Assembly (NCBI GenBank): GCA_965204575.1
Contig: OZ241993.1
Location: 1,728,001-1,792,000 of the forward strand
Reading direction: 5' to 3'
DNA from: an uncultured candidatus Porisulfidus sp.
GTDB lineage: Bacteria; Pseudomonadota; Gammaproteobacteria; Poriferisulfidales; Poriferisulfidaceae
DNA: 64,000 nt
Positions 2,298 to 45,462 of the stretch are shown in pieces. The position numbers and the translations under genes are program-made. The notes beneath the pieces were generated by a model. That model searched no databases, was not told where the DNA came from, and saw only the letters and a program-made list of their open reading frames with translations. Positions within the stretch are counted from its first letter, which is position 1. Each line of letters begins with the position of its first letter.

Positions 2298-3794
2298 TCA
2301 GCCCGCTTCCGGGCGCATGTGCGGGAACAGCAGCACGTCGCGGATCGACGGCGCATCGCAGAAAAACATCACCAGCCGGTCGATGCCGATGCCAATCCCG
2401 GCCGTCGGCGGCATGCCGTATTCCAGGGCACGGATATAGTCGGCGTCGTAGTGCATCGCCTCCGGGTCGCCCGCATCCCGCCTCTCCACCTGCTCCCGGA
2501 ACCGCTCCGCCTGATCCTGCGGATCATTCAGCTCGGAAAATCCGTTCGCGATCTCCCGCCCGGCCACGAACAATTCAAAGCGGTCCACGAAATCAGGGTT
2601 ATGGTCGCAACGCCGCGCCAGCGGCGAGACTTCGAGCGGATACTCGGTCACAAACGTCGGCTGCTCCAGCTTCTCCTCCACCGACGACTCGAAAAGGTCG
2701 AACAGCAGCCCTCCCTCGCCCCGGTTTTTATCGACCTCTACGCCACTGTCCCGGCACAATCCGGCCAGTAGTTCCCGGTTGGACAGGTCGGACCGATCCA
2801 GGCTCGGATGATGCGCCAGCACCGCGTCGGTCAGCGTGGTGCGCTGGAAAGGCTGCTCCAGGTCGTATTCCCGGCCCTGGTAGGACACGGTCGTGCTGCC
2901 CAGCACGGACTGCGCCATCTCCCGCATCAATGCTTCCGCGAGGTTCATCAGGTCTTGGTAATCGGCGAACGCCTGGTACAACTCCATCATGGTGAATTCC
3001 GGGTTGTGCCGCGACGACACCCCTTCGTTGCGGAAGCTGCGGTTGATTTCGAACACCTTCTCGAACCCCCCCACCACCAGGCGCTTGAGGTACAACTCGG
3101 GCGCGACGCGCAGGTACAGGTCCTGGTGCAACACGTTGTGGTGCGTCACGAAGGGACGCGCCGTCGCGCCGCCTGCGATCGAATGCATCATGGGGGTCTC
3201 GACTTCCAGAAATTCGCGCTGCTCCAGTTGCTGCCGCAGGCAGTTGAGCAACTGGCTGCGTTTCTGGAACACGCCCCGGGCCTCGCTGTTCATGATCAGG
3301 TCCACGTGACGCTGCCGGTAACGCTGTTCGATATCCGTCAATCCGTGGTATTTCTCCGGCAACGGCCGCAGGGACTTACTCAGCAGCCGCACTTCCTGCA
3401 CGTCCACCGACAGCTCCCCGGTCTTGGTCTTCATCAGGACGCCCTGCGCCCCGACGATGTCGCCGATGTCCCAAGTCTTGAAGTCCGCGTAGTCCGATTC
3501 GCCCAGCCCGTCGCGGCGCACCAGCAACTGAATTCGCCCCGTCCGGTCCTGCACATGCGCGAACGCGGACTTGCCCATCACGCGCTGGCTCATCAACCGT
3601 CCCCCCAGGGCCACGCTCACCTGGCCGCCGGTCAACTCCTCCGCCGTCTGCTCCGCATGCGCCTCCTGCAACTCCTGCGCCGCATGCGTGGGCCGGAAAT
3701 CATTCGGATACGCCCAGCCGGACGTCCGCAGTTCCTGCAGCTTCTCCTGACGCTGCGCGAGCAGGCGCTCTTCGCCGGTTTTCGCCTTGGCCAT
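2298..3794 (-). CDS. lysS: Lysine--tRNA ligase
   Basis: [46 protein letters not shown]; follows prfB. Confidence 0.98.
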
Positions 3795-4889
3795 TACAAC
3801 CCCGCCTTGAGACTGGCTTCCAGGAAAGCGTCGAGGTCGCCATCCAATACGACCTGCGGCGTGCCGGTCTCGACCTGGGTGCGCAGGTCCTTGATTCGCG
3901 ACTGGTCCAGCACGTAGGAACGGATCTGGCTGCCCCAGCCGATATCGGCCTTCTCTCCGGCACTCTGCTGCTCGGCTTCACGCCGCTTCTGCTCTTCCAG
4001 CTGGTAGAGCTTGGCCCGCAACTGCCGCATCGCCATCTCCTTGTTCTTGTGCTGTGAGCGACTATTCTGACATTGTGTGACCACGCCGCTCGGAAGATGC
4101 GTGAGCCGCACCGCCGATTCGGTCTTGTTGACGTGCTGCCCACCGGCCCCGCTGGCCCGGTACACGTCGACCCTCAGGTCGCTCGGGTCGATTTCGATTT
4201 CGATCTCGTCGCTGACCACCGGCGAGACCACCACCGCCGCGAACGAGGTATGCCGGCGGTTGCCGGAATCGAACGGCGACTTGCGCACCAAGCGATGCAC
4301 GCCGGTCTCCGTGCGCAGCCAGCCGTAGCAATAGTCGCCGGTGTACTTGATGGTCGCACTCTTGATTCCCGCCACTTCGCCCGCCGAGGCGGCGATCAAC
4401 TCAGTCCCGTAGCCGCGCTTCTCCCCCCAGCGCAGGTACATGCGCAACAGCATCTCGGCCCAGTCCTGCGCCTCGGTGCCGCCGGAACCGGCCTGGATGT
4501 CAAGAAAAGCGTCGCCGGCGTCGAACCGCCCGGAAAACATGCGCTGGAACTCGAGGTCATGCACCCGTTTCGCACAGCCCCGGATATCCGACGCCAAGGC
4601 CGCCATTGTGTCCTCGTCCTGCTCCTCCAGGGCGAGGTCCAGCAACTCCCCGCTGTCGCGCAGGGAGTCTCCGAGATCGTCGAGCGTCAGCACGACAAAC
4701 TCCAGGCGGGCACGCGCCTGGCCCAGTTCGCGCGCCTGGTCCGGATCCTTCCAGATTTCGGGGTTTTCCAGTTGCTGCTTTATTTCGTCCAGCTGGCGGC
4801 GTTTGCCGTCGAGGTCAAAGATACCCCCTAAGCGCATCCACCCGCTGTGTCAGGTCACGCAACTGTTCCGGCAGAGAGAGTTCTTCCAT
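3794..4889 (-). CDS. prfB: Peptide chain release factor 2, translated through a programmed +1 frameshift
   Basis: ATG at 4889 gives [24 protein letters not shown] then CTT TGA C; downstream frame has the SPF and GAGGQHVN motifs. Confidence 0.97.
4814..4829 (-). promoter_or_regulatory. prfB +1 frameshift signal (internal SD AGGGGG-TAT-CTTTGAC)
   Basis: Minus strand reads AGGGGG TAT CTT TGA C, the canonical RF2 autoregulatory site. Confidence 0.96.
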
Positions 4890-4913
4890 AGTCAGGGCCT
4901 CGCAGGCCGCGGA

Positions 4914-6176
4914 TTATACGCGGATTTGTCCGTCGCCGTAGACTACGAACTTCTGGCTGGTCAGCCCTTCCAGTCCGACCGGCCCGCGAGCGTGCAACTT
5001 GTCCGTGCTGATCCCGATCTCCGCACCCAGTCCGTACTCGAATCCGTCCGCGAACCGGGTCGAGGCATTCAGCATCACGGAGCTGGAATCCACCTCGCGC
5101 ATGAACCGCTTCGCCCGCTCCTCGTCCTCAGTGACAATGGCATCGGTATGGTGCGAACCGTATTTCGCGATGTGATCCATCGCTTCGTCGAGGCCTGCGA
5201 CCACCCGCACCGACAGAATCGGCGACAGGTACTCCTCGGCCCAGTCCTCCTCGGCCGCCGGGACGGCCTGCTCCAGCAAATCGCAAGTACGGGGACAGCC
5301 CCGAATCTCCACCCCATGCTCAGCGTAGGCGTCGCCCAGGGTCGGCAGCAATTCTTCGGCACGGGACTCCGCGACCAGCAGGGTTTCCATTGCATTGCAG
5401 ACGCCGTAGCGCTGGGTCTTGGCGTTCACGGCAATGCGGATCGCCTGGTCCCGGTCTGCGGCATCGTCGATGTACACGTGGCATACGCCATGCAGATGCT
5501 TGAGGATCGGAATATGGGTATTGTCGTGAACCCGTTTGATCAGGTCCGTCCCGCCCCGGGGGATGATCAGATCCACCCATTCGTCCATCTTGAGCAGCGC
5601 GTCGATCGCGGCCCGGTCCGTGGTCGGCAGCAACTGCGCGCCTTCCGGAGGCAGCGAAGCCTGGCGCAGGCCTTCCTGCAGGCACTCTACCAGCGCCTGG
5701 CTAGAACGGTACGACTCGGAGCCGCCGCGCAAAATGACCGCATTGCCAGACTTGATGCACAATCCGCCCGCTTCCACTGTCACGCCGGGACGGGCCTCGT
5801 AAATCATGCCGATGACCCCGATCGGCACCCGCATCCGCCCGACCTTCAGGCCATTGGACCGATCCTGCATGTCCGAGATCCGGCCCAAGAGGTCCGGCAA
5901 CTCGGCAATATGCTCCAGTTCCACCGCCAGCCCCTCAATCCGCGATTCATCCAGTGCCAGGCGGTCGATGAACGCATCGTCCCGATGCGGCCTCGCGGCT
6001 TCCACGTCTTCCGTGTTGGCTTCAATGATCGCGCCCGCACGCTCCCGGATCAGGCCGGCCGTGGTTCGCATGACCTGGTTGCGCGCCTCCGTGCTGGAAG
6101 CCGCAACGACCCGCCCGGCCGCTCGCGCGGCCTGACCCAGTCCGGCAATCCGGGCGTCCAGATTTTCCTCAGGCAT
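4914..6176 (-). CDS. proA: Gamma-glutamyl phosphate reductase
   Basis: PIGVIGMIYEARP, VCNAMETLLV, NASTRFADGFEYGLGAEIGIST. Confidence 0.97.
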   Translation of the reverse strand: MPEENLDARIAGLGQAARAAGRVVAASSTEARNQVMRTTAGLIRERAGAIIEANTEDVEAARPHRDDAFIDRLALDESRIEGLAVELEHIAELPDLLGRISDMQDRSNGLKVGRMRVPIGVIGMIYEARPGVTVEAGGLCIKSGNAVILRGGSESYRSSQALVECLQEGLRQASLPPEGAQLLPTTDRAAIDALLKMDEWVDLIIPRGGTDLIKRVHDNTHIPILKHLHGVCHVYIDDAADRDQAIRIAVNAKTQRYGVCNAMETLLVAESRAEELLPTLGDAYAEHGVEIRGCPRTCDLLEQAVPAAEEDWAEEYLSPILSVRVVAGLDEAMDHIAKYGSHHTDAIVTEDEERAKRFMREVDSSSVMLNASTRFADGFEYGLGAEIGISTDKLHARGPVGLEGLTSQKFVVYGDGQIRV

Positions 6177-7185
6177 GGTCGGAGACTCCCTGTACAGGCA
6201 ACAATCGATCCTTTCCTGAAAAAGCCAGGCAGGCGTTCTGGATGGCGGGCCACGGGCTTTCCGGCCCCTGTCCCTTGACCACCCGTTCCAGGTGGATGAA
6301 GCGTTTCAGTATAGCGCGAAAATGCCCCTGAGAGTGCTGGTTCAGGGCTCTTTTCAGCAGGTCGCGGCGAGTGAACGGGAAAATCGAGTCCAGTCCGGAC
6401 GGCTGGCGGCTCAAGGCGAGCAACTGTCGGATCTCACGCATCAGCATGGCATGCGTCGTGACCGGGTCGTGACCCTCGCTCTCCAGGTTCCGCGCCACGC
6501 TGATGATGCGGCGTCCCCGGCCCTGCAGCATGGCCATGGCCAGATCCATCGCCTCGTAGCGGGCGTCCTGCCCCAGGGACTGCTGCAAGGACTCCATCGA
6601 GACCGACCCCGGCCCGTTCAGGATGTGCAGCTTGTGCAATTCCTGCTCGGCCGCCAGCAGGTTGCCCTCCACGCAGGACAGGAAATAATCCGTCTCGAAG
6701 CTGTCCATCTCCAGCTCGCGCTTTCGAAGCGCCCCCTGCAACCACTGCCGGGTCTCTCCTTCGTCCATCGGCATGATCCGCACGATCAGGCCGATCTTGT
6801 CTATGGCGCGCACCCACGCCTCGTTCAAGGCCCGATTGTCCAACCGCGGCACCTGCAGGGTAATCAGGCTACCCTCCGGGGACTGTTCGCACCATTCCTT
6901 GAGCCGGGCTTTCGCCGTCGCGTCCGGCTTGCCGCTCAGCACCCGCATGTCGAGCATGGCCTGGTCCCCGAACAGGGACGGGCTGCACAGCGTCGGCAGT
7001 TCCTCCCAGGCAAAGCCCCGCTCGATGATCCGCAGTTCACGGCGATCAAAGCCTTCCTGCTTCGCCCGCTGGCGAATCATCCGTGCCGCATCCCGCATCT
7101 GCACCGGCTCGTCCCCGGTAATCAGGTACACCGGCAGGAGCGGCCCGTCCAGGACCTCGCGGAGTTTTCGAAAGTAGACTTTCAC
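6169..7185 (-). CDS. holA: DNA polymerase III delta subunit
   Basis: LLPVYLITGDEP, SLFG, EGNLLAAEQELHKL; holA-proA synteny. Confidence 0.92.
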   Translation of the reverse strand: MKVYFRKLREVLDGPLLPVYLITGDEPVQMRDAARMIRQRAKQEGFDRRELRIIERGFAWEELPTLCSPSLFGDQAMLDMRVLSGKPDATAKARLKEWCEQSPEGSLITLQVPRLDNRALNEAWVRAIDKIGLIVRIMPMDEGETRQWLQGALRKRELEMDSFETDYFLSCVEGNLLAAEQELHKLHILNGPGSVSMESLQQSLGQDARYEAMDLAMAMLQGRGRRIISVARNLESEGHDPVTTHAMLMREIRQLLALSRQPSGLDSIFPFTRRDLLKRALNQHSQGHFRAILKRFIHLERVVKGQGPESPWPAIQNACLAFSGKDRLLPVQGVSDHA

Positions 7186-7229
7186 GATGCGGGTATGATG
7201 CGTTCGTATTGTAAAGGGAACAAAACCCC

Positions 7230-8117
7230 ATGAGTGAACTTTCCATCGGCTGGGTCGGCCCCGGAATCATGGGCCGCCCGATGGTTCTCAACCTGCTGCA
7301 CGCCGGCTATCCGGTCAAGGCATTTGCGCGTCGGCCCGAACAGTTAGAGCCCCTAATCGGGGCTGGCGCCACAACCGGAGATACCCCGGCTGAAGTCAGC
7401 GCGGCAACCGACCTGACCATCGTCATGGTGGCGGACACCCCGGACATGCTGGAAGTCGTGACGGGGGACAATGGGATCGAAAAAGGCGCCCAACCTGGCC
7501 ACATCGTGGTCGACATGAGCACCGTCTCGCCGACCGAAACGCGGACTGTAGCCCAACAATTGGAAGCAAAAGGCATCGCCATGCTGGACGCCCCGGTATC
7601 CGGCGGCGAAACCGGAGCCATCGACGGCACTCTCTCGATCATGGTCGGCGGGCCGGCAGAAACCTTTGATCGCGTCCGGCCGGTATTCGAGGTGCTGGGG
7701 GGGCAGGTGCGTCTAATCGGTGATGCCGGAGCCGGACAAGTGGCCAAAGCCTGCAACCAGTTGCTCGTGGCTCAGACGATGGCGGCGGTGGCAGAGGCTT
7801 TCCTGCTGGCGGAATCAAGCGGCGTGAGCCGCGAACAAGTGCGCGACGCTCTGCTTGGCGGATTTGCCTACAGCCGCATCCTGGAAGTCCACGGGCAACG
7901 CATGCTGACCGGCGACTACCAGCCGGGCTTCAAGGCCGAACTGCATCTCAAGGATCTTCGCATCGTGGACCGGGAGGCTCGGGAGACCGGCATCTCCCTG
8001 TCCGGTGCGAAAGACGCGCTGCACCTGATGGAGCAATTGGTCGAGCAAGGTGATGGCGGTTTGGATTCCGCCGCTCTGGCGAAAATGGTGCGCCAGCGCG
8101 CCCTGAAGAAAGGCTGA
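7230..8117 (+). CDS. 2-hydroxy-3-oxopropionate reductase / beta-hydroxyacid dehydrogenase family
   Basis: GWVGPGIMGRPM Rossmann motif, LDAPVSGG, GAGQVAKACNQ, FKAELHLKDL. Confidence 0.9.
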   Translation: MSELSIGWVGPGIMGRPMVLNLLHAGYPVKAFARRPEQLEPLIGAGATTGDTPAEVSAATDLTIVMVADTPDMLEVVTGDNGIEKGAQPGHIVVDMSTVSPTETRTVAQQLEAKGIAMLDAPVSGGETGAIDGTLSIMVGGPAETFDRVRPVFEVLGGQVRLIGDAGAGQVAKACNQLLVAQTMAAVAEAFLLAESSGVSREQVRDALLGGFAYSRILEVHGQRMLTGDYQPGFKAELHLKDLRIVDREARETGISLSGAKDALHLMEQLVEQGDGGLDSAALAKMVRQRALKKG

Positions 8118-8135
8118 ACCTGAAGCTTCATTCGC

Positions 8136-8459
8136 ATGGACAGAGTCGAAGAAGGGATTCTGGACAGCGTCTCAGTTATCGACGAGGCGCTCAGAGAGAT
8201 GAGGCGAATCATGTCGCAAGACTCGGGCATGCCGGTAGCAAGCCCTGTCGTGGCAATCGACGAAGTCGCCGAATGGTTGATCGAAGACGGGGAATGGCGC
8301 GAAGAAGTAAAGGATTTGGTGTTCGGTCTGCTGGCGAGAGAAATCGTTGGAGAAGAGGCCCTAGAGTGCCCGGATGAGAGAAATCGTGAGATCGTCGACC
8401 ATCACGACGACATCATCGAAGTGATGCAACTCGTCGTGGACTCCGTCAACGAATTGTGA
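8136..8459 (+). CDS. Very acidic hypothetical protein (107 aa)
   Basis: Open ORF right after the dehydrogenase; about 30 D/E versus 9 K/R by hand count. Confidence 0.6.
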   Translation: MDRVEEGILDSVSVIDEALREMRRIMSQDSGMPVASPVVAIDEVAEWLIEDGEWREEVKDLVFGLLAREIVGEEALECPDERNREIVDHHDDIIEVMQLVVDSVNEL

Positions 8460-8629
8460 ATTAAAACATTCTCTCTGACGAATCCCACCAGACTCTCGAA
8501 AAGTCGACAACTCATACAATACCGGGCTAGTTCGACACCTCCAAGCGCCACCTATCACTTACGGAAATCCGAGCACCATAGCCAAACGGATCATTCATCC
8601 GTCTACGAGGTCCGATCAATATCGGTGGT

Positions 8630-42299: not shown

Positions 42300-43698
42300 T
42301 CCGGGCTGGCTGGCCGCGCTTCGCGACCTGGTCGACCCCGAGGACCTGCTCGACGACCCGGCCGACTGCTGGACCTACGGCTACGACAACAGCCGGCAGC
42401 ACAGTGCCCCGCAGGCCGTGGTCTTCGCCCGCGAGGCAAGCCAAATTCAGGATCTGGTCCGCTTCTGCCGGGCCCATCGCATCGCCCTGACTACCCGGGG
42501 CCTCGGCACCAACACTACGGGAGCCGCGGTGCCCTTGCAGCACGGCATCGTCCTCTCCACCGAGCGCATGAACCGGCTCCTGGACATTGACCCGCGCGAA
42601 CAGACCGCGCGGGTTGAACCCGGGCTCATCAACCAGCAACTCCAGGACGCGGCCGGCGAATACCGGCTGTTCTGGGCGCCGGACCCGTCCAGTTCCCCGT
42701 TTTGCACCATTGGCGGCAACCTGGCCTGCAATGCAGCCGGGCCCCGGGCGCTCAAGTACGGCACCACCCGCGACAACACGCTCCAGGTCCGGGCCATCAC
42801 CGGCGCTGGCGAGCCCCTGAGCGCCGGCACCCTGACTCGCAAGGGCGTGGTCGGATTCGATTTGATGCGCCTGCTGATCGGCTCGGAAGGAACGCTGGCG
42901 ATTTTCACCGAGGCGACCCTGCTGCTGCGCCCGCGCCCACAGGCGCTCGCGACCGCGCGCGCCGTCTATGCCGACCCCCAACATGCGATGGAAGCCATCG
43001 AGGCCATCCTCGCCCAACCCAACCTGCCGTGCGCGCTGGAATTCATGGACGCCGCCTGTCTGGACCTGATTCGCGACGACGGACAAGTAGAACTTCCGGA
43101 AAGCGCTCGCGCCCTCCTCCTGATCGATATTGATGGCGATGCCGACCAACTGCCGCAAACTTCCGCACCCATCGCCCAAGCGGCTTCTACCGAAAAATGC
43201 CTGGATTTTCAAATTGCTTTTGGGGATGAGGAACGCGAAACCTTGTGGCAGGCACGGCGCACGCTCTCACCCGCATTGCGCCGCATCGCTCCCGAGAAAA
43301 TCAACGAGGATGTCGTGGTCCCGGTCAGTCGGCTTGCGGAATTGCTGAAAGAACTGGATGAGATTCGTACACGTTATGCCATCCCCATCGTCTGCTTCGG
43401 GCATGCGGGATCTGGAAACATCCATGTCAACCTGATGCCGGACGGCTCGGATGAACAGCGAGAAATCGCTTTTCGCTGCCTGGATGAAGTTTTCGGGGCA
43501 GTCCTGCGCCTCGGAGGCACCCTGTCGGGCGAACACGGCGTAGGCATCGCGAAACGAGAGCACATCGCCCGCGAGCTGGATCCTGCTTCACTGAAGATGA
43601 TGCACGCGATCAAACGCGACTTCGACCCGGATGGCATCCTCAATCCGGGGAAGAACCTGCCGGACCCGGATGCATTTACAGACCAACCCCATGCTTGA
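42292..43698 (+). CDS. FAD-linked oxidase (GlcD/D-lactate dehydrogenase-like)
   Basis: PDPSS...TIGGNLACNAAG, GSEGTL, EDVVVP, GHAGSGN.H, SGEHGVG. Confidence 0.9.
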   Translation: MSDPGWLAALRDLVDPEDLLDDPADCWTYGYDNSRQHSAPQAVVFAREASQIQDLVRFCRAHRIALTTRGLGTNTTGAAVPLQHGIVLSTERMNRLLDIDPREQTARVEPGLINQQLQDAAGEYRLFWAPDPSSSPFCTIGGNLACNAAGPRALKYGTTRDNTLQVRAITGAGEPLSAGTLTRKGVVGFDLMRLLIGSEGTLAIFTEATLLLRPRPQALATARAVYADPQHAMEAIEAILAQPNLPCALEFMDAACLDLIRDDGQVELPESARALLLIDIDGDADQLPQTSAPIAQAASTEKCLDFQIAFGDEERETLWQARRTLSPALRRIAPEKINEDVVVPVSRLAELLKELDEIRTRYAIPIVCFGHAGSGNIHVNLMPDGSDEQREIAFRCLDEVFGAVLRLGGTLSGEHGVGIAKREHIARELDPASLKMMHAIKRDFDPDGILNPGKNLPDPDAFTDQPHA

Positions 43699-43722
43699 CC
43701 TTGGATCCTATCAGCGAATGGG

Positions 43723-44031
43723 TCAAGTGGATCCGGGGTGCGCCTTCTTGTAGTCTTGGTAATCCGATACTGAAATGTAAGACAGGATGGGAAACCCAGC
43801 GGCTCCTTTTTCACCTAGCCTCGGCAATATGCGACGTACGAGCCCCGTGGTTTTGTTCGAATCCAGCAGCCCTCCCTTCGTATTTGCCTCAAAAACGACT
43901 TTGATTCGATAGATCTCATCGCCATAGTGATCCAAATCCGAGACAGCATGAACCGACAGGATTTCGCTGCCAATCGCTTTCTGGGCAATCTTTTTAACTA
44001 TTTTTTCGACAAGGCGTTCTATGTCAGACAT
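43723..44031 (-). CDS. Hypothetical protein, possibly an MNT-like orphan antitoxin
   Basis: D.DHYGDEIYRIKVVF...LVRRI...L...GFP.LSY pattern; low GC. Confidence 0.55.
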   Translation of the reverse strand: MSDIERLVEKIVKKIAQKAIGSEILSVHAVSDLDHYGDEIYRIKVVFEANTKGGLLDSNKTTGLVRRILPRLGEKGAAGFPILSYISVSDYQDYKKAHPGST

Positions 44032-44152
44032 GGCTCATGAAAGTTAGATAACCCAAGGTGTACCTGATGAGGGATTGCCCTTTATGCCATCTGAATTTCC
44101 AGCCTTTCGCGAAATCTGCCCTAGCAGAAGCTAAAGCACACGTGTCTAGTTA

Positions 44153-44281
44153 TTACTTTTTGGGCGGCGGCGGCGGCGGCGGCGGCGGCTTAACAGCATT
44201 CGCAGGCATTGGTGAGACACCGCGCGCTGGCACTTCTCTACCACCGGATGGCGCATTCGGCACAGATGGTTTATTCGTCAT
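44153..44281 (-). CDS. 42-aa polyproline peptide, unannotated
   Basis: MTNKPSVPNAPSGGREVPARGVSPMPANAVKPPPPPPPPPKK; GGAG 6 nt before ATG, 3 nt after the upstream stop, tandem TAA TAA. Confidence 0.7.
   Translation of the reverse strand: MTNKPSVPNAPSGGREVPARGVSPMPANAVKPPPPPPPPPKK
44162..44188 (-). repeat. (CCG)8 CCC trinucleotide run encoding Pro9
   Basis: Plus strand gggcggcggcggcggcggcggcggcgg inside an otherwise low-GC patch. Confidence 0.9.
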
Positions 44282-44284
44282 GCT

Positions 44285-44917
44285 TCACTCCGCATCCTGT
44301 TCGCCAGAGGGCATAGGTAGAAATTCTATCATTTCTACTTCGGATGCGGTGACCAACATATGGGAAACCCCTTCAAGTGGTTCTCGTTTGTTTTCATCCT
44401 TCAACCACTCACATTTGACCATTAGGAAATGCTGGTCTTCCGCCCGACTCGGCCATTCCTGAGGCCAACCATATAAGCGACGTTCCCCTTTCAAATGCAA
44501 TACAACAAAACAGTCTCTATGGTTCGCGAAAGCCGAATATTGCGCTGATCGGTACGAACTCTCCCTTGTTAACCCCCACTCACGAAGGTGCCTATGCAAC
44601 CAATCGCGATTCCAAGTGCAGGCTGATATCAACCCGAGCATAACCGCTACAAGAACCAGCACCCACGTTGATATCTCCCACTTCCACTTATCACTGGACA
44701 GGATGTCCGGCCACATGGCTTCAATTCCAGAAAAAGCGGGCAATGCTGCCAATTGCACAAACATAGTGAAAACGAATGCCTGCACTATGACTTCAATTCC
44801 ACTCGGCTTTGAGTTTGAAATTAACGCTTGAAAAACTCCTGCGGCTACAAATCCCGGCAAGAGAAATAGAAGGACTCTTATGGTCTCGCTAGACTCCAAA
44901 ACTGCGAACAAATTCAT
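44285..44917 (-). CDS. DUF6338-like membrane protein (N-terminal TM helices, C-terminal small beta-barrel)
   Basis: LLFLLPGF, about three TM segments, then FVVLHLKGERRLYGW...FLM...W...MLV...EVEMIEF. Confidence 0.65.
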   Translation of the reverse strand: MNLFAVLESSETIRVLLFLLPGFVAAGVFQALISNSKPSGIEVIVQAFVFTMFVQLAALPAFSGIEAMWPDILSSDKWKWEISTWVLVLVAVMLGLISACTWNRDWLHRHLREWGLTRESSYRSAQYSAFANHRDCFVVLHLKGERRLYGWPQEWPSRAEDQHFLMVKCEWLKDENKREPLEGVSHMLVTASEVEMIEFLPMPSGEQDAE

Positions 44918-44961
44918 CCCTGAACCCTCTTGGTTCAGCATAACATGCCGAAGCGATTTTT

Positions 44962-45462
44962 TTAAACTTCCCGCGTGGAAAGCTGCTGCCGATACAACTC
45001 TGCATCTTGTTCTGAAAAACAGCAGCACACCAAGCGCTCGAAATCAGCCTCATGCTGGCGTAACGCTTCCAGCGCGACCCTCGCCGCCTCAGCTTTCGGA
45101 TAGCCATAGACCCCGGTGCTGATCGCCGGGAACGCCAGCGACCTGAGCTTTTCCTGCTCTGCCAGCCGGCAACTGTTGTGATAGCAGGATGCGAGCAACG
45201 CTTCCTCGCCTTCCTGGCCCCCTTTCCAAATCGGCCCGACCGTGAGGATCACGTGGCGAGCTTTCAGGCCGAAACCGGGCGCAATCTTCGCTTCCCCCGT
45301 CTCACACCCTCCCAGGGTGGCGGTAAACCGGGCCAGTTCCGGACCTGCCGCGCGGTGGATGGCGCCATCCACGCCTCCGCCCGGCATCAGGCTGGCGTTG
45401 GCGGCATTGACGATCGCATCGACCTCCAGGCCGGTGATGTCTCCGACGACGATTTCGATCAT
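44962..45462 (-). CDS. Macro domain protein (YmdB-like O-acetyl-ADP-ribose deacetylase)
   Basis: GDIT, VDAIVNAAN, GGGVDGAIHRAAG, FPAISTGVYGYP. Confidence 0.93.
   Translation of the reverse strand: MIEIVVGDITGLEVDAIVNAANASLMPGGGVDGAIHRAAGPELARFTATLGGCETGEAKIAPGFGLKARHVILTVGPIWKGGQEGEEALLASCYHNSCRLAEQEKLRSLAFPAISTGVYGYPKAEAARVALEALRQHEADFERLVCCCFSEQDAELYRQQLSTREV

Follow-up and report, generated by a model that had tools for sequence, protein, structure and literature searches.

A conserved gene pair that encodes a DUF6338 membrane protein with a predicted Sm-like barrel and a polyproline-lysine micropeptide, its candidate partner

On the minus strand of a 64,000-nucleotide stretch of contig OZ241993.1 from an uncultured candidatus Porisulfidus sp. 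(the whole stretch is called the window below) lies a pair of closely spaced genes, the first of which encodes a membrane protein of the DUF6338 family and the second a micropeptide that ends in nine prolines followed by lysines. The DUF6338 gene extends from ATG at 44917 to TGA at 44285 (stop codon 44287..44285) and encodes 210 amino acids (aa); its first-pass annotation as DUF6338-like, made from the DNA letters alone, was borne out by a match to Pfam PF19865 (E=2e-16, 60.7 bits versus a gathering cut-off of 26.5, profile positions 11-203 of 205). After a spacer of 3 nucleotides (nt; AGC), the micropeptide gene starts with ATG at 44281 and ends with TAA at 44155..44153; it comprises 42 codons and the TAA, is in the same frame as the DUF6338 gene, and its full product reads MTNKPSVPNAPSGGREVPARGVSPMPANAVKPPPPPPPPPKK. 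A GGAG that resembles a Shine-Dalgarno (SD) motif is located at 44291..44288, within the final DUF6338 codons and 6 nt 5' of the micropeptide ATG. The conserved tail of the peptide, K-P9-K-K, is encoded at 44191..44156 (AAG, then (CCG)8 CCC at 44188..44162, then AAA AAG), and a second in-frame TAA (44152..44150) immediately follows the stop. This second TAA is also present in the closest relative, locus L001, and the codon after the stop differs among other loci, so that the double TAA is not a family feature. Both open reading frames (ORFs), the 3-nt gap, the GGAG, the nine-proline run and the double TAA were confirmed as first described, as was the low-GC patch that contains them: the GC content is 45-53% over approximately 43700-45000, versus 60-68% in the flanks. 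When the entire 64 kb was searched for (CCN)7, the proline run alone was recovered, with 0 matches in 100 shuffles. A longer DUF6338 gene with a GTG start at 45028 was rejected: it would overlap the adjacent Macro-domain gene, and it has no backing from homologues in an alignment of 36 homologues of the DUF6338 protein (alignment A1).

A 42-codon ORF alone says little, because 102 ORFs of at least 30 aa are found in 9 kb; it is raised above chance by its conservation beside DUF6338 in related loci. Such loci were collected with A1 as the query, which gave 309 relatives in contigs from one genome per species, and the best 80 were kept (L001-L080; 40-92% protein identity, 8 phyla), all of them from metagenome-assembled genomes (MAGs) of uncultured bacteria; a homologue on a Planctomycetota plasmid (L081) makes phylum nine. 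An automatic and loose Pro-tail test looked for ORFs no longer than 80 aa in which some 12-residue window of the last 22 residues holds 7 or more prolines; 76 of the 80 loci have such an ORF with a start between -35 and +160 nt relative to the DUF6338 stop. Elsewhere in those loci only 10 such ORFs occur in 1,323,716 strand-bases, and 5 of these 10 are extra copies beside DUF6338. With the two loci that the automatic test missed (L062 and L080, where the Pro-tail ORF overlaps the end of the DUF6338 gene), a complete Pro-tailed ORF of 25-68 aa is present at the 3' end of the DUF6338 gene in 78/80 loci. As to the others, the contig of L018 ends 77 nt past the DUF6338 stop, with the first 24 peptide codons visible, and L039 has two peptide copies upstream, and none downstream, of two decayed DUF6338 copies. 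The plasmid homologue (32% identity) is accompanied by a 49-aa ORF that ends in PPPPPPKQS and overlaps the end of the DUF6338 gene and is missing from the RefSeq plasmid gene table as shown, which is incomplete. The first-pass annotation had linked Pro-rich micro-ORFs to DUF6338 genes and proposed to list the ORFs around homologues; Pro-rich, Lys-ending ORFs were indeed found in every locus examined, nearly always downstream (78/80), and in one published proteome (PMC10433244).

In 71 of 76 ORFs no more than 31 nt separate the peptide start from the DUF6338 stop; 31 show the 3-nt gap and 5 an ATGA overlap, and an SD-like 4-mer at -18..-4 precedes 63/76 peptide ORFs, compared with 269/1520 random ATGs (17.7%) in the same loci. 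The frame always enters the proline run and meets a stop soon after it, though the 78 peptides differ in length (25-59 aa). In the tails of the 76 ORFs proline is encoded by CCG 337 times, CCA 150, CCT 133 and CCC 92 times, and the use of all four codons indicates that selection acts on proline, not on a DNA repeat. Pooled over 17 sister pairs and the whole ORF, the ratio of non-synonymous to synonymous change (pN/pS) is 0.34, and each of the 16 defined ratios is below 1 (0.10-0.79). These sequence comparisons indicate purifying selection on the encoded micropeptide and mark its ORF as an old, conserved partner gene, mostly overlooked by gene callers. That it is a real, translated partner gene of DUF6338 is held with very high confidence. 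At 44162-44188 the window carries a perfect (CCG)8 CCC run, while L001 and most loci use mixed codons; a perfect trinucleotide repeat of this kind could change the length of the run by slippage without a frame shift.

The peptides constitute one family, the consensus of which was taken from a peptide alignment (A2) and reads MAKxPxPPP...GxSPKPxxxxKPPPPPPPPPKK. It has three conserved parts, a MAKEPxPPPS-like N-terminus, a middle G-V-S-P-K-P and the C-terminal K-(Pro)7-10-K-K; in A2 K31, P32 and P34-P36 are nearly invariant and P38 and P39 invariant. The median length is 43 aa (range 25-59, n=78; the L080 peptide, up to 68 aa from a TTG start, is outside this set), and the same 78 peptides consist of 33% proline and 14% lysine, with a median net charge of +7. 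The conserved runs mostly count 7-10 prolines and at most 13, and nine, the longest run in 27/78 peptides, is the commonest value. Cysteine is absent from 77/78 peptides. The window peptide fits the consensus and is 83% identical to that of L001; it contains no cysteine and no hydrophobic N-terminus. Phage o-spanins, which are Rz1-like Pro-rich lipoproteins, carry a lipobox cysteine and a signal sequence, and neither was found in the peptide. A profile search with the peptide alignment recovered only 50 predicted proteins at E<=0.01, none of them with a Pfam domain and all named 'hypothetical protein'. The copy number varies from 1 to 3, with duplicate peptide genes downstream in L003, L005 and L037 and peptide genes upstream in L010, L035, L039 and L053. 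In the Rhodothermales loci L035 (3701-3892) and L053 (3715-3897) the second peptide gene is placed approximately 100 nt upstream of the DUF6338 start, so peptide genes stand on both sides of the DUF6338 gene, and L010 combines an upstream peptide gene of a type ending in TPSPKR (3451-3588) with a downstream peptide. The decayed DUF6338 copies of L039 (355-1575 and 3497-4486), one of them split into three frame-shifted ORFs and the other without its N-terminus, each have a Pro-tail peptide gene of the distinct TPSPKR subtype ahead of them and none after them.

Evidence that such peptides are made comes solely from Pseudomonas stutzeri, in a study that is the only mention of DUF6338 in the literature searched; PF19865 gave none, and searches for polyproline small ORFs returned nothing on the pair among the titles listed. 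In that species three unannotated, Pro-rich peptides, SEP1, SEP5 and SEP2 (36, 47 and 41 aa), are encoded directly after the DUF6338 gene Pstu14405_RS12030, end in PPPPKK, PPPPPKRDSK and PPPPPKKGG, respectively, and were seen by digest-free mass spectrometry with 44-114 spectra (PMC10433244). Like the window peptide, they lie downstream of DUF6338 on the same strand and are Pro-rich and cationic, with a PPPP(P)K[KR] ending; they differ in their shorter, interrupted proline runs (4-5) and in the presence of three copies, and their homology to the window peptide was judged by inspection. The authors regarded these peptides as not conserved beyond P. stutzeri and possibly the products of de novo genes (PMC10433244), whereas the pairing is present here in 80 further loci of 8 phyla and on a planctomycete plasmid.

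The DUF6338 protein itself belongs to a large family: 247 homologues were found at E<=1e-3 in a word-indexed search, and 1425 representative clusters at E<=1e-3. According to AlphaFold2 and DSSP (with A1), it has three membrane helices at residues 11-32, 40-68 and 76-103 (44609..44887, minus strand), and AlphaFold2 with Foldseek places a helix and a five- to six-stranded Sm-like barrel at residues 123-200 (44318..44551, minus strand). The window model, built from 37 sequences, contains three long and two short helices and a barrel at 137-200, with a mean predicted local distance difference test (pLDDT) of 78.6, and the model of the homologue P0210 (34% identical, 96 sequences) has the same layout at pLDDT 88.6, its membrane-helix layout exceeding 90. 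Applied to the sequence by inference, the positive-inside rule suggests that the N-terminus is out and the C-terminus in; with such a charge distribution the barrel would face the cytoplasm, the compartment in which the peptide, lacking a signal sequence, is synthesised. Most of the residues invariant in A1 sit in the barrel and its lead-in, namely R146, R147, L148, G150, W151, P152, E154, W155, P156, H163, E170, W171, L172, E195 and F199, with the motif RRLxGWPxEWP among them. When both models were compared with the PDB by Foldseek, the top matches were Sm/LSm proteins (E ~1e-4, template modelling (TM) score 0.7-0.8, target-normalised 0.75-0.81), which superpose with a root-mean-square deviation of 1.9-3 Å over ~72 columns at 10-19% identity. 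On the strength of the two models, the C-terminal domain is predicted to be a small Sm-like barrel; of the 'Sm/SH3-like barrel' originally proposed, the Sm part was thus upheld, and the SH3 part found no match in Pfam or among the Foldseek matches listed. The initial reading of the locus as a candidate two-gene system stands, since the DUF6338 identity, the Sm-like barrel and the recurring link with a micro-ORF are all supported.

No Pfam family other than DUF6338, LSM included, was matched at E<=0.1, no RNA-binding motif was identified in the protein, NCBIfam has no family for it, and the PHROGs matches (E=0.075 and 0.25) are non-significant. No significant sequence match to a solved structure was obtained, the best being YnaI (E=0.31). 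An MscS-like channel, a type of protein that likewise joins membrane helices to an Sm-like beta domain, found no support: the PDB profile search returned only YnaI (E=0.31-0.59) on the N-terminal helices (query 39-98), off the junction of the pore and the beta-domain, and there was no MS_channel Pfam match and no MscS among the Foldseek matches listed. Among 2796 candidates no fused or multidomain form longer than 368 aa was seen at E<=1e-3, a negative result of little weight. A tblastn search of the phage genome collection found no match. The nearest non-DUF6338 cluster in the ESM Atlas (score 0.92) is unnamed and half viral, with the phylum known for 6 members, and BFVD entry A0A8S5PTE5, an uncharacterised 197-aa protein of the uncultured siphovirus Siphoviridae sp. 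ct96x5, aligns with the whole DUF6338 model (194 columns, TM ~0.5, E=1e-6); these are weak leads, and phage-borne relatives of DUF6338 may exist. The distant homologues P0198, P0199, P0213, P0229, P0234, P0248, P0251, P0287 and P0310 carry low-complexity C-terminal tails of 60-120 residues, several of which end in Lys/Arg clusters, and such tails may be built-in counterparts of the separate peptide. The loop between membrane helices 1 and 2, predicted to be cytoplasmic, holds a nearly invariant S-N-P-K-P-S that resembles the V-S-P-K-P of the peptide; the window versions are SNSKPS (44804-44821, DUF6338 residues 33-38) and VSPMP (44201-44215, peptide residues 23-27). This likeness could be due to chance, or the two motifs could compete for one site.

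The unit consists of the two genes only. All-against-all clustering of the ORFs of the 81 loci left DUF6338 as the only family common to all, and the next real family occurs in 13 loci (ORF clusters 1, 2 and 4 are ORFs that overlap the DUF6338 gene itself and are not neighbours); no third gene is conserved. In the window, petA/B/C-like genes, sspA, sspB and the Macro-domain gene lie 5' of the pair on the same strand, and a convergent flavin adenine dinucleotide (FAD) oxidase gene lies 3' of it; a scan for promoters and terminators gave a site count no higher than in shuffles. A 102-aa ORF at 44031..43723 (minus strand) was rejected as a third gene: it is contained in a 407-bp segment (43696-44102) absent from L001, joins none of the ORF clusters shared between loci and drew no match from Pfam, NCBIfam, PHROGs or PADLOC. 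The 407-bp segment is of low GC, and no flanking repeats were found; in the ESM Atlas the 102-aa ORF is near unnamed Pseudomonadota clusters of ~100 aa (0.94). Across the loci, the neighbouring genes are mostly ordinary metabolic ones. Restriction-type genes, with Type ISP, GmrSD, Mrr, EcoEI R and N6/N4 methylase domains, adjoin the module in 10/73 loci, a raw count for which 141/157 immediate-neighbour ORFs were scanned. Large Type ISP enzymes (Type_ISP_C and N6_Mtase) are convergent directly after the module in L016, L021, L026, L032 and L053 (~4720-8560, minus strand), five loci that span three phyla, and GmrSD-type restriction genes flank it in L017, L050 and L060.

The DUF6338 gene is lower in GC than its surroundings in 72/74 loci (median difference -0.10), and the DUF6338 protein tree mostly follows phyla, with 14 label changes, where 7 is the minimum and shuffles average 38, and with some cross-phylum placements. 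The window and L001 are syntenic, with 86-87% DNA identity across the genes that flank the module, and for this reason the module is not regarded as highly mobile. On the plasmid (L081, NZ_CP019084.1, Paludisphaera) the DUF6338 gene has an ATPase/S8 peptidase pair on one side and an integrase on the other: on the same strand it comes after genes for an ATP-binding protein and an S8 peptidase of 826 aa (1-2947), and a tyrosine recombinase is downstream, an arrangement that may represent a larger cassette. PADLOC, run on the DUF6338 protein, the peptide and both flanking ORFs, returned 0 families at E<=0.1. Taken together, the module looks like an accessory unit that is occasionally transferred, neither a highly mobile element nor a recognised defence system, and the anti-phage defence role suggested for the pair in the first-pass annotation is speculative. 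One of the loci L001-L080 was assigned to the family Candidatus Poriferihabitaceae; since all 80 are MAGs and one belongs to this family, the closest relatives may share a habitat.

What could the two products do together? Two natural fusions, P0210 (248 aa, found unchanged on 9 contigs) and P0215 (259 aa), carry the entire peptide after the barrel, Pro run as well as N-terminal and middle motifs, and a third, P0009, is a deletion derivative in which the barrel is joined to the second half of the peptide. AlphaFold gave the 30-residue linker of P0210 a pLDDT of 50-54 and the two Pro-run/Lys blocks 78 and 84, and this raised confidence of the fused tail would fit a docked tail. Chances that the peptide binds the DUF6338 barrel are put at about even. 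In the mechanism proposed, DUF6338 would sit in the inner membrane by its three helices and hold its Sm-like beta-barrel in the cytoplasm, and the peptide gene, which starts at or near the DUF6338 stop with an SD motif in the last DUF6338 codons, would be translated in a coupled manner. Its product, a cationic, cysteine-free peptide of ~43 residues without a signal sequence, would dock as a lysine-flanked polyproline-II rod on the Trp/Glu-rich surface of the Sm-like barrel, or of a ring of barrels, at the cytoplasmic face of the membrane, and would thereby complete or regulate the membrane protein.

Ribosomes stall at consecutive prolines unless elongation factor P (EF-P) acts. The longest proline run is 8 in E. 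coli K-12 (AmiB) and 4 in B. subtilis (PMC13602936), and because nine prolines exceed both maxima, EF-P dependence of the synthesis of the peptide is a safe expectation. Peptide supply relative to DUF6338 would then track elongation capacity, as ribosomes need EF-P for the nine-proline run. A role as sensor of translation status, another early suggestion, has the known EF-P dependence of proline runs as its only basis and is speculative.

Several observations weigh against a peptide that is dedicated to the barrel. Fusions are rare (3/268 DUF6338-sized proteins, P0009 included), and the pLDDT of the fused tail is ambiguous, because pLDDT is a local measure: the raised values may show no more than that a polyproline helix is locally stiff. 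SH3, WW or similar Pfam families gave no match with the DUF6338 protein, no SH3 is among the Foldseek matches listed, and the barrel resembles Sm and not the classical proline-binding folds. Peptide genes that are upstream or in 2-3 copies fit a partner, and they fit a product or cargo equally well. In the sister pair L016/L026 there are 4 non-synonymous and 0 synonymous differences. The P. stutzeri DUF6338 protein was undetected, in work without membrane fractions (PMC10433244). With these points counted, the peptide as a dedicated, translationally coupled partner of DUF6338, probably docking on the barrel, is an interpretation as easily right as wrong.

The alternative that survives best is that the two products are functionally linked without binding each other: both would act on the same third partner (RNA, the ribosome or anionic lipids, for example), to which they would owe their co-inheritance. 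The Sm/LSm proteins, which are the best structural matches, bind RNA, the median net charge of the peptides is +7, their copy number varies from 1 to 3, and in P. stutzeri the peptides are abundant in fractions without detected DUF6338 protein (PMC10433244). However, the natural fusions tether the peptide to the barrel, tight translational coupling is more typical of the subunits of one complex, and neither a Pfam LSM match nor an RNA-binding motif was identified, so that this arrangement is possible yet rather unlikely.

A second alternative takes the peptide as a product or cargo, signal-like or antimicrobial-like, and DUF6338 as its dedicated exporter or as an immunity protein of the producer. 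Tandem, diverged copies beside a single membrane protein resemble arrays of precursor-peptide genes; such tandem or extra copies occur in the loci named above, and three are reported for P. stutzeri, the authors of which raise an antimicrobial role and the presence of DUF6338 in biosynthetic clusters (PMC10433244). The peptides are, moreover, cationic and Pro-rich. They nevertheless contain no signal sequence, leader-cleavage motif or cysteine (77/78 without Cys), genes for modification or transport are not conserved nearby, the fused form would need cleavage to be released, and the Sm-like domain is predicted to be on the cytoplasmic side, the same as synthesis, which makes an export or immunity function improbable.

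Similarly doubtful is a translation-gated membrane effector, whose Sm-like domains would assemble a membrane-anchored, pore-capable ring, with the peptide as a short-lived plug or antidote. Synthesis of the peptide would depend to an unusual degree on EF-P and on the supply of prolyl-tRNA; in a cell whose elongation is failing because of phage takeover, EF-P loss or starvation, it would not be made and the effector would be freed, and the pair would thus be an addiction or abortive-infection module that reads elongation capacity via the polyproline run.

It is very unlikely that the ORF is a cis-acting translational device, in which pausing at the proline run sets mRNA stability or operon expression and the peptide is irrelevant. 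The run stands at the very end of the ORF and, as a stretch of nine, is longer than the E. coli K-12 and B. subtilis maxima (PMC13602936), and proline runs stall ribosomes in the absence of EF-P. Yet the ORF is 3' of the sole conserved gene, with no conserved gene after it, unlike known arrest or leader peptides: regulatory peptides of this class are encoded upstream of the gene that they regulate, and the ORF is downstream in 78/80 loci. The N-terminal and middle motifs are conserved far from the run, the pN/pS of 0.34 applies to the whole ORF, and full-length peptides accumulate in P. stutzeri (PMC10433244). No Rfam element was matched at E<=1 in 43500-45200. Finally, the notion of a chance ORF over a C-rich, non-coding repeat, to which the perfect (CCG)8 repeat of the window and the abundance of short ORFs in GC-rich DNA lend themselves, is refuted as far as sequence comparison allows, its likelihood being next to nil, by the mixed codons of the run in related loci, by a start, frame and stop that are kept in 78/80 loci while the identity of the neighbour protein is 40-92%, by purifying selection and by the detection of relatives in proteomics.

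The pair is thus a previously unrecognised, deeply conserved combination of a membrane-anchored protein, predicted to be Sm-like, and a polyproline-lysine micropeptide. It defines a widespread micropeptide family that has had neither a Pfam or NCBIfam model nor a name beyond 'hypothetical protein', and it gives DUF6338 its first fixed functional partner and, by modelling, a fold assignment. The published view of species-specific de novo peptides is corrected (PMC10433244). The peptides also provide natural, conserved and extreme EF-P substrates, the runs of which exceed the E. coli K-12 and B. subtilis maxima (PMC13602936).

Compared with toxin-antitoxin and abortive-infection modules, the pair is likewise compact, autonomous and coupled, of low GC and set in varied neighbourhoods, 10/73 of them with restriction genes, and it has a copy on a plasmid next to an integrase and a decayed copy in L039; it differs in having no PADLOC or toxin-antitoxin Pfam match, a tree that follows phyla and synteny with L001. 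With Sm, LSm and Hfq proteins it shares, in the models, the fold of residues 123-200, where a helix leads into a sharply bent barrel (TM 0.7-0.8), whereas the identity is only 10-19%, a Pfam LSM match is lacking and the DUF6338 barrel is joined to three membrane helices. Small proteins are known to regulate bacterial membrane proteins, e.g., AcrZ with AcrB, and the micropeptide is similar in that it has <50 residues and is encoded with a membrane protein; the AcrZ-type regulators, however, are hydrophobic single membrane helices, while the micropeptide is hydrophilic and would meet a cytoplasmic domain. SH3 domains bind PxxP ligands that have Lys/Arg at their flank (classes I and II); reminiscent of them here are a small barrel, in which Trp, Pro and acidic residues are invariant, and a polyproline segment between basic residues. 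The differences are that the barrel matches Sm/LSm, without an SH3-type Pfam match, and that the predicted ligand is a separate, co-translated product; if the peptide does bind the barrel, the two would constitute a bacterial pair of polyproline ligand and small barrel encoded as two coupled genes.

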